From: Eledone cirrhosa
Taxonomy: Eukaryota
Assembly (NCBI GenBank): GCA_964016885.1
Contig: OZ024744.1
Location: forward strand, 38,626,001 to 38,690,000
DNA length: 64,000 nucleotides
Direction: 5' to 3'
The number at the start of each line of letters is the position of its first letter. Position 1 is the stretch's first letter. Of this stretch, positions 36,458 to 62,981 are shown piece by piece. A program made the position numbers and the translations under genes. Under the pieces are notes generated by a model. That model worked only from the letters and a program-made list of their open reading frames with translations, was not told the origin of the DNA and did no database searches.

Positions 36458-36493
36458 TCTTAACATTTCGGACGCTAGTCCTTCATCAGAAGA
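36458..36493 (-). ncRNA. Minimal hammerhead ribozyme in family Z (paralog at 28558-28594)
   Basis: Reverse complement reads tctt-CTGATGA-a-GGAC tagc GTCC-GAAA-tg-TT-aaga. Confidence 0.7.
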
Positions 36494-58875: not shown

Positions 58876-59533
58876 CACAGATACAATTACACAATATGTG
58901 TATGTGCAATACTTACATAGGAAATTAGATAAGACTGATATATATATATTTTTTTTTTTTTTTTTTTTTATAAAAAACTGAGATAATATTGCATTTTGCT
59001 GAACTCCTTATTGTAGAGATTTTATTCGGAATGTTTTTGACTGCTGTTTCTTGTAAACAAACATTCGTCTCATTCTGACGTCAATAGCCATGTATTTCCT
59101 CATGTGCGTTTTTCATAATCACGCATGATGTTGAACTGGCCAGCTTTAGAATTCCCTTTTTGGCATATTAATCTGTGAGAATCCTGGTTATCGAGTTGAG
59201 CTCTGCTGATGATGAACTCCAACCGTGACCATCTCCACTGAAAGTTTTCATGAAATAGTCTTTAAGACTATACAGACCATTTGAAGTTTTTCAAAATTGA
59301 AGGATAAGTATTTTGAACTTTATTTTATCATGAGTTAAGGCTCTATTGATTTTTCCCTGGATTTCACTAAATTCTGTGGATGACTTTATATCCTGATTCT
59401 CTTTGAGATGAGTTTAAATTATTTTTCCCACATCTTACGTTAACTATTTTTCCCATTTTGACGACATAGTCGCATATATGTTATGGAATGCTGTTCGCTT
59501 TTCGCTACAGTGTTTTCTATACCTTTCATTTAT

Positions 59534-59653
<120 letters not shown>

Positions 59654-59656
59654 ATG

Positions 59657-59691
<35 letters not shown>

Positions 59692-59823
59692 ATGTATATA
59701 TATATCATATGACTCCAGTTCCTCAGTGAATTAACAACCCAACAGGGAACTGGGCATATCAGAGTATTGACAATATTATACACCTCAACAACATATGTAG
59801 TTGTCTATACCATACTAATTCAA

Positions 59824-59878
59824 ACTGCCTGAAGAGGTCACAGCCAAAGATGGCTGTCACTGAAATATATATAGCAGT
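59824..59878 (+). ncRNA. Complete type-I hammerhead ribozyme within a TA-flanked element (~59705-60025)
   Basis: actgc-CTGAAGA-GGTcACAGCCA aaga TGGCTGTcACT-GAAA-TATATA-TA-gcagt; perfect 5-bp stem I. Confidence 0.88.
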
Positions 59879-60024
59879 AATAAACGAAGCTAAATTTTAA
59901 TCATTTGACTTTTATTTAACTTTATTTTACACTACTCCGGAGTAACCAAACCAACCTGCGCACTTCGTCGAGTGCTCCAGCCTGCATACTGAGGTGTTGG
60001 TATACAACCAACATAAACTCAAAA

Positions 60025-60107
<83 letters not shown>

Positions 60108-60306
60108 AAAAGATAACAAGGACGAATGGTTACTCCTTGTAAACTTACATTTATGGGTTGGTGACGCGCGTTTCGCCACTGATCAGCTCAACATCGAGTG
60201 CTCACCCGGGTGAACCTACAGTAACTCCAAGTTACACTCCCTAGATATATCTATCTCTCTCTCTATATATATATATAAGCAAAAGGGATATTCAATTTGT
60301 TGGTAA

Positions 60307-61283
60307 CACCGTGTAACATATTTTTTGTACCCCTGTTCTAAGTGTCATTTCATGGTTTGTTATATCCCATTATTATAAAAAAACACTATTATTTAATCAG
60401 AAGTTTGGGTTTGTGGTCTGGAGTTTGATATTTCGAAATTTTCATATTTTTCAAGAAAAAACACATTTTTTTTTAATTTATCAGTTCATATAATTAAATC
60501 AACAGAGTATATATTTATTTTATTACACAAGCTTATTAAAAGCAAACAAGTAAAAACAAATAATACTTATAAAGCAACTTATACACGTCAGAAATGACTG
60601 GATTTCCTGGAATTGCGGTTGTAGTCCAGGTCGCATTCCCGCACTAACCCCCAGATATATTCCCCCATCAATTTTTCATTGTAGTGGCCCTGGTACCTCC
60701 GCTCTATCTCTTTCACATCTTGGTGGAATCGTTCGCCTTGTCCTTGAATTTTTCCAGGTGAGCGTTCAGCATATAGAGTTTAAGCGACATCCTGCATCCC
60801 ATGGCGCCAAAAGCCTTTATCAGATCCTGCACCAGTTGCTGGTAGTTTTCAGCTCTGTAGTTGCCCAGGAAGCCCTTAACAACTGCCTTGAAACAGTTCC
60901 ATGCTGTTCTCTCAATCCTACTGAACTCGGTAGACTCAAACACCTTCTTTATCTGAGGTCCAACAAAAATTCCACCTTTGATTTTGGCGTCAGATAACTT
61001 GGGGAAGAACTCAAGAAGGTACTTAAAAGCGGATGATTCTTGGTTGAGAGCTTTCACTGCTCCCATTTCTTTCTTTTGTAGTGGTCAGAAGTGGCTCTGC
61101 TGTCCCAAAGGCAGAGGAAGGACTGGAATTTGATAAAGCCTCCTTGAAGTCCAAGCAGGAAAGCCACCATCTTGAAGTCTCCAATGATTTCCCAATTGTA
61201 CTGGTTGTATTGCAGAGCTTCCAAGAGGACTTTCACACTGTAGTAATCTTCCTTCAGGCAGACTGAATGAGCTAGGGGCAGTT
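60307..61283 (-). mobile_element. Chapaev(3)-like DNA transposon, 3' part with deleted and frameshifted transposase
   Basis: GDFKMVAFLLGLQGG..FLCLWDSRA, FPKLSDAKIKGGIFVGPQI, GFLGN and MSLKLYML; CAC-starting terminus caccgtgtaaca at 60307. The family name is from memory of these motifs. Confidence 0.7.
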
Positions 61284-61398
61284 ATAATTCAACAAATATA
61301 AATGTTTATAACTGATTCAGAGCACTCGACAGAGAAAACTTGCACCGTTAAGGTATCTTTTCTTGGTTATGTCAAACTTTATAATACAAACTTTGTAT

Positions 61399-61453
61399 TT
61401 TATCTGATGAAAGCGTACCAAAGTTTTGGTACCCTTGAAATATATATAATAGA
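61399..61453 (+). ncRNA. Complete type-I hammerhead ribozyme
   Basis: tttat-CTGATGA-AAGcGTACCAA agtt TTGGTACcCTT-GAAA-TATATA-TA-ataga. Confidence 0.85.
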
Positions 61454-61514
61454 ATAAATATGATTTTATAAATATAGTTTCCATTTATTTAATGTCATTA
61501 TATATATTAGAAAC

Positions 61515-62536: not shown

Positions 62537-62611
<75 letters not shown>

Positions 62612-62859
62612 GGACCTGTCGTCGAAGAAACAACACCACGCGTTCGACCAGCCCCTGTATCATGAAAAGAAAAATCTTTTTCGAGGAAATTATTCGATTT
62701 TTCCAAATTTGAAGATTTCTGAGGAACTTTCAATGTTTATCTTAGGTTTTTCCCTCGGAAGAGCTCAGGATATCTTAACTGATAGTCCTTAGTGAAATAT
62801 GTATAACAGAGTTTTAAATAAACCTGAATCAACTGAATATGGCCTCCGATCTTTTATTA

Positions 62860-62981
<122 letters not shown>

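Follow-up and report, generated by a model that had tools for sequence, protein, structure and literature searches.

The window analysed here is a stretch of 64,000 nucleotides from the genome of Eledone cirrhosa (assembly GCA_964016885.1, contig OZ024744.1, positions 38,626,001 to 38,690,000 of the forward strand). Near its downstream end lie the 3' parts of two Penelope-like elements (PLEs) of different families, A and B, each with a hammerhead motif in its pseudo-LTR (pLTR). Stem II positions (10.1, 10.4, 11.4 and so on) follow the usual hammerhead numbering convention. The features are as follows.

59570-59704, no strand assigned: (TA)n microsatellite 5' of the family A end, the likely insertion target
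59705-59929, plus strand: 3' part of a family A pLTR, a 5'-truncated solo end with no ORF; 98% to the pLTRs of loci L063 and L127
59824-59878, plus strand: hammerhead A, type I (stem I 59824-59828/59874-59878, core 59829-59835, stem II 59836-59861, GAAA 59862-59865, palindrome 59865-59872, predicted cut after 59873)
59839, plus strand: unpaired C10.4 of hammerhead A, opposite C59858, from sequence and fold; C in 13 of 13 multi-copy clusters
59930-60027, plus strand: optional tail of family A, about 96 nt, with a second 3' end at 60022-60025
60263-60306, minus strand: distal half of an inverted family B tail, by blastn to the B loci L068, L077, L090 and L213
60307-61284, minus strand: unrelated insertion of 978 nt that splits the inverted B tail, with TAA on both flanks
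61285-61331, minus strand: proximal half of the inverted B tail, by its match to other B copies
61334-61499, plus strand: 3' part of a family B pLTR, then a TA-rich repeat; 92-96% to other B ends
61399-61453, plus strand: hammerhead B, type I (stem I 61396-61403/61449-61456, core 61404-61410, stem II 61411-61436, GAAA 61437-61440, palindrome 61440-61447, predicted cut after 61448)
61414, plus strand: unpaired C10.4 of hammerhead B, opposite C61433, from sequence and fold
62751-62810, plus strand: third hammerhead of the same lineage, damaged, from a covariance model of A and B (22.1 bits, E 0.0087)

Hammerheads A and B lie where the initial annotation had placed them and contain the parts it had listed. 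In hammerhead A, stem I is ACTGC/GCAGT and the core is CTGAAGA. Stem II runs from GGT-C59839-ACAGCCA through the loop AAGA to TGGCTGT-C59858-ACT, and is followed by GAAA, TATATA and TA. In hammerhead B, stem I is TTTAT/ATAGA and the core is CTGATGA, and stem II (AAG-C61414-GTACCAA, loop AGTT, TTGGTAC-C61433-CTT) precedes the same GAAA, TATATA and TA. Stem II of both consists of three base pairs, a C.C mismatch, seven base pairs and a 4-nt loop. Two details are corrected here: the first stem II pair of hammerhead A is G.U, and stem I of hammerhead B contains one U.G and can be extended to 8 bp. As previously claimed, the sequences differ while pairing is kept, at five of the six first paired positions of the stem II 5' arm. 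Like type I hammerheads, both motifs present CUGANGA, GAAA and UH in this order, have three helices and end in stem I. Helix III is formed only as an intermolecular palindrome, and the predicted cut sites are those of the hammerhead consensus. The isolated stems II of A and B fold as described (z of -3.3 and -4.2, with 0 and 1 of 200 shuffles as good), and stem I of hammerhead B is absent from the MFE structure of the free monomer. We regard it as practically certain that both motifs are type I hammerhead folds in the pLTRs of Penelope-like elements, for which self-cutting is predicted.

Rfam gave no match for A or B at the gathering score, and neither was among 54 matches at E<=10. This lowers only their membership in the Rfam families. 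When A and B are made into a covariance model, the check that the initial annotation had proposed, the model recovers both and one damaged relative in the window. The latter, at 62751-62810, has the core CGGAAGA, a C10.4 opposite U and the loop TATGTA, and its surroundings (62562-62927) are 85% like locus L301.

Families A and B are two Hydra-clade families of the RT plus GIY-YIG element type, and their endonucleases are about 46% identical. Locus L063 of family A displays the order of the parts: an inverted end, a pLTR with the hammerhead, an ORF about 250 nt further on, a 3' UTR of 1.2 kb, a second pLTR and a TA repeat. Direct and inverted pLTRs, 5' truncation and an optional tail are all found, as in PLEs. 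At locus L127 the ORF is open and encodes 892 aa, with the RT and a GIY-YIG at the C terminus in a single frame as in PLEs; the window copies have no ORF. The L127 protein contains RWK, DKT, YRDD, CxCx5C, a GIY-YIG without the two inner cysteines, CxxC and CxH. According to the available text of PMC8557442, the Hydra clade is recognized by RWK, DKT, the CxCx5C linker, a GIY-YIG without the CCHH cysteine pair, CxxC and CxH. The family A protein carries this set, and family B agrees with it in the endonuclease, which is the part compared. Pfam returned no significant family for the full 892-aa protein; GIY-YIG was matched only below the cut-off (18.6 versus 22.6 bits). Among named proteins, the closest relatives come from molluscs; one of them, from an octopod, is 47% identical. 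Between the RT thumb and the linker region, the family A protein (L127:1419-4094) also carries about 200 residues of low-complexity sequence, an insert that is shorter in most of the seven relatives compared.

The ends of family B lie 1.1-1.4 kb downstream of its own GIY-YIG endonuclease, which is 44-49% identical to that of A in full-length unshifted matches. In a tree of the endonuclease alone, built from 82 rows and 142 columns and weak at many forks, A, B, a family with the loop TGCGCA and a C.U mismatch, and a fourth family group in one clade with support 98/84. The labels L051 and L311 in this tree were disregarded, as the hammerhead there belongs to an independent insertion that lies downstream of a different element. 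The sum of branches between A and B is about 1.6 amino-acid changes per site. Only these four families are tied to a protein; the others were assigned by likeness of hammerhead and pLTR. As judged from this one endonuclease clade, A and B share the mismatch by descent.

The elements insert in (TA)n. Of 261 copies, 240 reach (TA)5 within 175 nt of the cut site, versus 866 of 3,000 controls. Copies end at (TA)n about 45-55 or about 135-155 nt downstream of the predicted cut site. The two distances have counterparts at the family A end in the window: the 3' pLTR of L063 terminates at the base matching 59929, contigs of unknown kind from the four sequencing runs compared enter the TA repeat past 59929, and the tail leads to the second 3' end. 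At about 95 nt, this tail is longer than the 30-40 nt reported for other PLEs. It opens with an ACTC...GAGTG hairpin carrying a 2-nt bulge, and at least 10 of the 12 largest clusters retain this hairpin. Beside the first 3' end, the hairpin thus forms a second conserved RNA element, one that may serve as a protein or priming site. The insertion that splits the inverted B tail contains a broken minus-strand frame, which resembles that of a DNA transposase; Pfam assigned no family to the inserted frame 60713-61081. A non-LTR retrozyme was considered as the source of the two motifs and rejected, as both belong to ORF-bearing elements and are not in tandem in the window. The window copies of A and B are probably inert relics, solo truncated ends without coding capacity.

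The lineage to which A and B belong is very large. In the 3.0-Gb genome, the core followed by N26 and GAAATATATATA matched 14,878 times (6 for the reversed control). The first 100 of these matches listed all belong to family A or B, and many of these 100 form close inverted pairs. With loop III relaxed to TRYRYA, stems of 27-50 nt gave 87,391 matches (control 175) and stems of 10-25 nt gave 7,002 (control 111), some of the latter being inner double matches. The three patterns total about 109,000 pattern matches, with 292 in the controls. For comparison among families, 318 contexts were collected, 33 without stem I were dropped, and the remaining 285 fell into 37 clusters. Before counting, 49 copies picked via a fixed 10.4 or 11.4, the loci L372-L375 and two deletion singletons were also removed. 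The final set contains 232 copies in 29 clusters, 13 of which have two or more copies. The "identical geometry" of the initial annotation is partly upheld: the three proximal base pairs and the mismatch are shared, but stem II varies from 20 to 43 nt across clusters, so that the 26 nt common to A and B are not the rule. Outside this genome, pattern scans gave 28 viral and at least 120 prokaryotic stretches; of the 108 loci compared, 2 passed a loose pairing filter and neither was motif-like.

The unpaired C in stem II is conserved throughout this lineage. Both Cs are present in 13,693 of the 14,878 copies with a 26-nt stem (92.0%; control 0). Among the 87,391 long-stem copies, 58,573 have C.C and 3,643 have a base other than C on the 5' side. 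By subtraction, once the C-G copies are also set aside, 24,864 have C.U or C.A, and those among the matches listed come mostly from one large family. All 13 multi-copy clusters have C at 10.4, which faces C in 11, U in one and A in one, and is paired in none. The neighbours 10.1-10.3 and 10.5-10.7 are paired in 12 or 13 of these clusters and have changed two to four times each on the 5' side. In the whole set, C stands at 10.4 in 28 of 29 clusters, and 28 of 29 have no pair in the mismatch column. The singleton cluster L363 carries a G at 10.4, where further copies of its family carry C.

The initial annotation had taken the covariation between A and B as a sign of selected RNA structure, and the wider set agrees. 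In 29 copies, one per cluster, covariation is 0.661 versus 0.283 when shuffled, with 0 of 500 shuffles as high; the shuffle control is inflated by the relatedness of the clusters, and slid controls reach at most 0.16. A Watson-Crick pair in the family consensus had been named as the sign that the two mismatches were independent mutations. None of the 13 multi-copy clusters has such a pair, and only 311 of 87,391 long-stem copies have C-G. The proposed conserved C-C mismatch therefore stands as a conserved position and not as independent mutations, but only its 5' C is invariant, the partner being C, U or A. For this invariance, the Poisson probability of no change is 0.05 with 13 clusters and 0.09 with 11, which is modest evidence, being based on a rough similarity tree of related clusters.

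The C-G copies look like sporadic, recurring single mutations. In what appeared to be the sub-lineage richest in C-G, the first 100 of 709 matches listed have 97 C, 1 G, 1 A and 1 T. In another family C-G is found on both haplotypes. At L378 and L388, only one of the two ends of the same insertion has it. A search for a hidden C-G subfamily covered the two families with the strongest enrichment in the 100 C-G matches listed of the 311, and found none. A genome-wide bias against perfect hairpins was also considered; other hammerhead families at the same loci have uninterrupted stems of up to 10-11 bp, and this candidate was rejected. We consider it probable that the mismatch is maintained by selection. 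The simplest history is that an ancestral C-G pair lost its G and that the open state was then retained.

Relatives are paired at this position. Of 77 metagenome loci with related ORFs, 45 have a hammerhead. Among the 40 distinct stems II that these provide, position 4 is paired in 39, the single exception being a doubtful candidate; C-G is found in 13 of the 40 and C.C in none. In the published Hydra rows (PMC8557442, File S2), 25 of 26 are paired at position 4 and the other has a 3-bp stem; no C.C is present in the rows of that file. The 56 examples drawn in Fig. S3 of PMC4209133 include no C.C; a sea-urchin C.A and a fluke U.U are seen at the fourth pair, one each. As other E. cirrhosa hammerhead families are also paired there, the sequences compared indicate that the mismatch is specific to the A/B lineage. 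The descriptor used in PMC8557442 may miss interrupted stems, so that the lack of a mismatch there is probably in part by design.

The nearest known systems are the hammerheads of Hydra-clade PLEs (Craig et al. 2021, PMC8557442, File S2; including Hydra-1_Obim), which are likewise type I and located in the pLTR. In the available text these elements also share the C-terminal GIY-YIG, RWK, DKT, CxCx5C and (TA)n insertions, and their hammerheads share a palindromic helix III of about 8 nt, cutting mostly after UA or UU, and a weak first pair of stem II. They differ in that all stems II listed there are uninterrupted and in that helix III starts as A-C...G-U, in contrast to A-U...A-U in the A/B lineage. 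The Hydra elements described there are less than 3 kb, whereas family A is about 4 kb with its 1.2-kb 3' UTR and 96-nt tail. The min-HHRs of metazoan PLEs (Cervera and de la Pena 2014, PMC4209133) occupy the same place in the pLTR, mostly in solo truncated copies and close inverted pairs. They have a long helix II, a helix I of 4-5 bp, a palindromic helix III, a dimer model and many covarying families per genome, as here. The A/B lineage has a longer palindrome and the conserved internal mismatch. The unpaired nucleotide that min-HHRs have between A9 and 10.1 is absent, position 10.1 being in register and paired in 22 of 29 clusters. Their conserved G10.1-C11.1 is replaced by other combinations in most cases (G-C in 7 of 29), and their palindromic 15.2-16.2 plus loop III is present, self-complementary in 29 of 29 clusters.

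The anole element PAc, a Poseidon element (Frangieh et al. 2024, PMC11167929), also has a pLTR hammerhead, with two 3' ends downstream of it that delimit a tail. This element belongs to another PLE clade, its ORF starts inside stem II, its tail is 30-40 nt, and the available text mentions no stem II mismatch. Dimeric PLE hammerheads with a short helix III, which cleave as dimers as proposed here, are reported by Lunse, Weinberg and Breaker (RNA Biol 14:1499), going by the title and by reviews that cite it. That Penelope-like and Hydra elements carry hammerheads is already known. A lineage-wide stem II mismatch is apparently new: no unpaired C of this kind was found in the literature searched, which covered text and not figures, so that a prior description is possible.

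Loop III bears on how these hammerheads would cut. From A15.1 to U16.1 the sequence is an 8-nt palindrome. Loop III is TATATA in 15 clusters, TATGTA in 8, and TGCGCA, TACGTA and TGTGCA in 2 each (n=29); the search patterns forced an alternating purine/pyrimidine loop III, and loops beyond that set are uncounted. Mismatch-bearing copies with TGATCA or CATGTG also exist, and related elements have CAAATTTG, CAGGCCTG, CTCGAG and others. Closure of helix III in the monomer costs 3-4.5 kcal/mol, and the self-duplex gives -3.2. Loop III as a putative dimerisation palindrome fits the published dimer model (PMC4209133; also PMC3088659 in its available text). A heterodimer of A and B in a read-through transcript was considered and rejected: cross stem I pairs form at only two or three of five positions, despite the common palindrome, and stems I without cross-pairing mean that A and B cannot partner each other. 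Clusters with a TTTTAT/ATAAAA-type stem I (B, the TGCGCA family and five others) are cross-compatible at 5 of 5 pairs and have similar palindromes. With such stems I and palindromes, hammerheads of different families could in principle dimerise.

The account that we favour combines same-family dimer cutting with the unpaired C as a gate, the C probably being offered to the RT-endonuclease. Taken as a whole we hold it in even balance. A monomer would be unable to close helix III, and two copies would pair via the 8-nt palindrome and swap their stem I strands. The short helix III and the mismatch may keep the ribozyme slow until a protein or a partner copy folds it. The unpaired C would weaken the three core-proximal base pairs and offer itself to the element's own RT-endonuclease. 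Genomic copies extend past an intact cut site and terminate about 50 or 150 nt downstream of it; the RNA that is reverse-transcribed would therefore not have been cut at its last hammerhead. A precedent is the anole Poseidon hammerhead, which cuts only with its protein and whose uncut RNA is the insertion substrate, according to the available text of PMC11167929.

Folding models agree with a weakened helix in part. Copies that naturally have C-G fold better than C.C copies by about 6 kcal/mol, and the mean pairing probability of the proximal three base pairs is 0.54 in 166 C.C copies versus 0.87 in 26 paired copies. The families are widely spread, and the proximal helix is well folded despite the mismatch in family B (median 0.93) and in one large cluster (0.89). 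Other mismatches at position 10.4, which occur in decayed copies, show no higher stability in the model, and energy is therefore not enough to explain why the base is C. Any mismatch would weaken the helix; that the 5' base nevertheless remains C suggests a contact. As no conserved RNA partner is visible, the element's protein is the first candidate for it. A gate with a protein contact at C10.4 falls a little short of an even chance. The stronger form, in which C10.4 would be a binding mark for the RT-endonuclease and the ribozyme would cut only after the protein is loaded, is a tentative proposal that we rate as rather unlikely. Hydra-type elements with perfect stems still move, so a gate is not needed in general.

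The contact could instead be made by RNA. C10.4 may touch stem I or the dimer partner and speed cleavage, replacing the contact of loop II with stem I. On stem II it is three base pairs away from the core, in the part that lies alongside stem I, and such contacts boost other hammerheads by orders of magnitude (PMC3088659, in the part available). The distal closing pairs are constrained, purine-pyrimidine at 10.5 and mostly pyrimidine-purine at 10.6, as in a structural motif. However, no conserved partner base is found in 14 upstream and 16 downstream columns of 29 clusters, stem I sequences vary freely among families, and a 5'-shortened schistosome minimal hammerhead revealed no hidden contact of this kind, as far as supplement legend S6 of PMC4209133 states. 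A tertiary contact of this kind is doubtful.

A frozen accident is slightly less likely again. The ancestral C-G pair would have lost its G once in the founder of the clade, and the tolerated mismatch would have been inherited via few source elements. C10.4-G pairing is common in relatives (13 of 40 stems, and most Hydra magnipapillata rows), so the C may simply be ancestral, and the 3' partner did drift among C, U and A. The independent lineages are few, with P of 0.05-0.09 for the multi-copy clusters. Yet the supposedly free C never changed over the A-B distance of about 1.6 changes per site, while its paired neighbours changed several times on both arms, and no family restored the pair despite recurrent C-G mutants (311 copies).

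An improbable alternative places the constraint on the C in the DNA: it would belong to an internal pLTR promoter or an endonuclease recognition site, the mismatch being a by-product. PLE promoters do sit in the pLTR (PMC6765202, available text), in tandem copies the start codon follows the hammerhead after about 250 nt, and most families show C-R-Y on this strand. A DNA motif would leave the opposite hairpin arm free to carry a G, yet no family has one, and the surrounding variation preserves RNA pairing rather than sequence.

Least probable of all is the idea of the initial annotation that loop III imitates the (TA)n target, for instance by priming or guiding insertion: TATATA is found in 15 of 29 clusters including A and B, and the elements end in (TA)n, but 14 of 29 clusters have other palindromes with two-sided changes that preserve self-complementarity, the large TGCGCA family ends in (TA)n too (27 of 28), further mismatch-bearing copies have TGATCA or CATGTG, and relatives use unrelated palindromes, the (TA)n-inserting Hydra families (nearly all those published) having C...G ones in the available text of PMC8557442.

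The preferred account, a dimer-cutting ribozyme gated by its unpaired C, touches on a puzzle of PLE hammerheads. They cut poorly, and in the one reconstituted element the hammerhead needs the protein and is dispensable for in vitro insertion. One unpaired base kept across families whose proteins are less than 50% identical points to a specific contact. If the protein-gated switch is true, cleavage would be tied to the transposition cycle, and about 100,000 copies in dozens of subfamilies would form a natural mutational scan for the role of the Penelope hammerhead. If the mismatch is neutral, the lineage is an ordinary new set of Hydra-clade families. Descriptor searches with a perfect stem II, and Rfam, miss this very large ribozyme population of about 109,000 pattern matches.

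Other hammerhead-like sequences were seen along the way. Elsewhere in the genome, L021 (1917, 2386, 2855), L033, L085 and L128 have hammerheads spaced about 470-500 nt apart, or at a multiple of this distance, with a CTAG loop III; they are like the tandem units of retrozymes. Family A pieces of 95-100% identity occur in sequencing runs labelled as three other organisms, two of them at very low depth, and may reflect a relative, diet or contamination. Within the window, 59201-59279 (plus strand) is a further type I hammerhead-like motif of a different family, with a long, monomer-competent helix III (TAGTCT/AGACTA); the repeat that contains it, 58962-59710, is 84% like L126. At 60157-60192 (minus strand) there is a weak Rfam Hammerhead_1 match (20.9 bits, E 0.13), with a damaged core CTGATCA, a very short stem II and a GCGC loop, probably the decayed end of a further element. 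At 36489 (minus strand) lies a classic minimal hammerhead with an extra base after the core, a 4-bp stem II and no loop III, and the same family is also found at L079 and L309.
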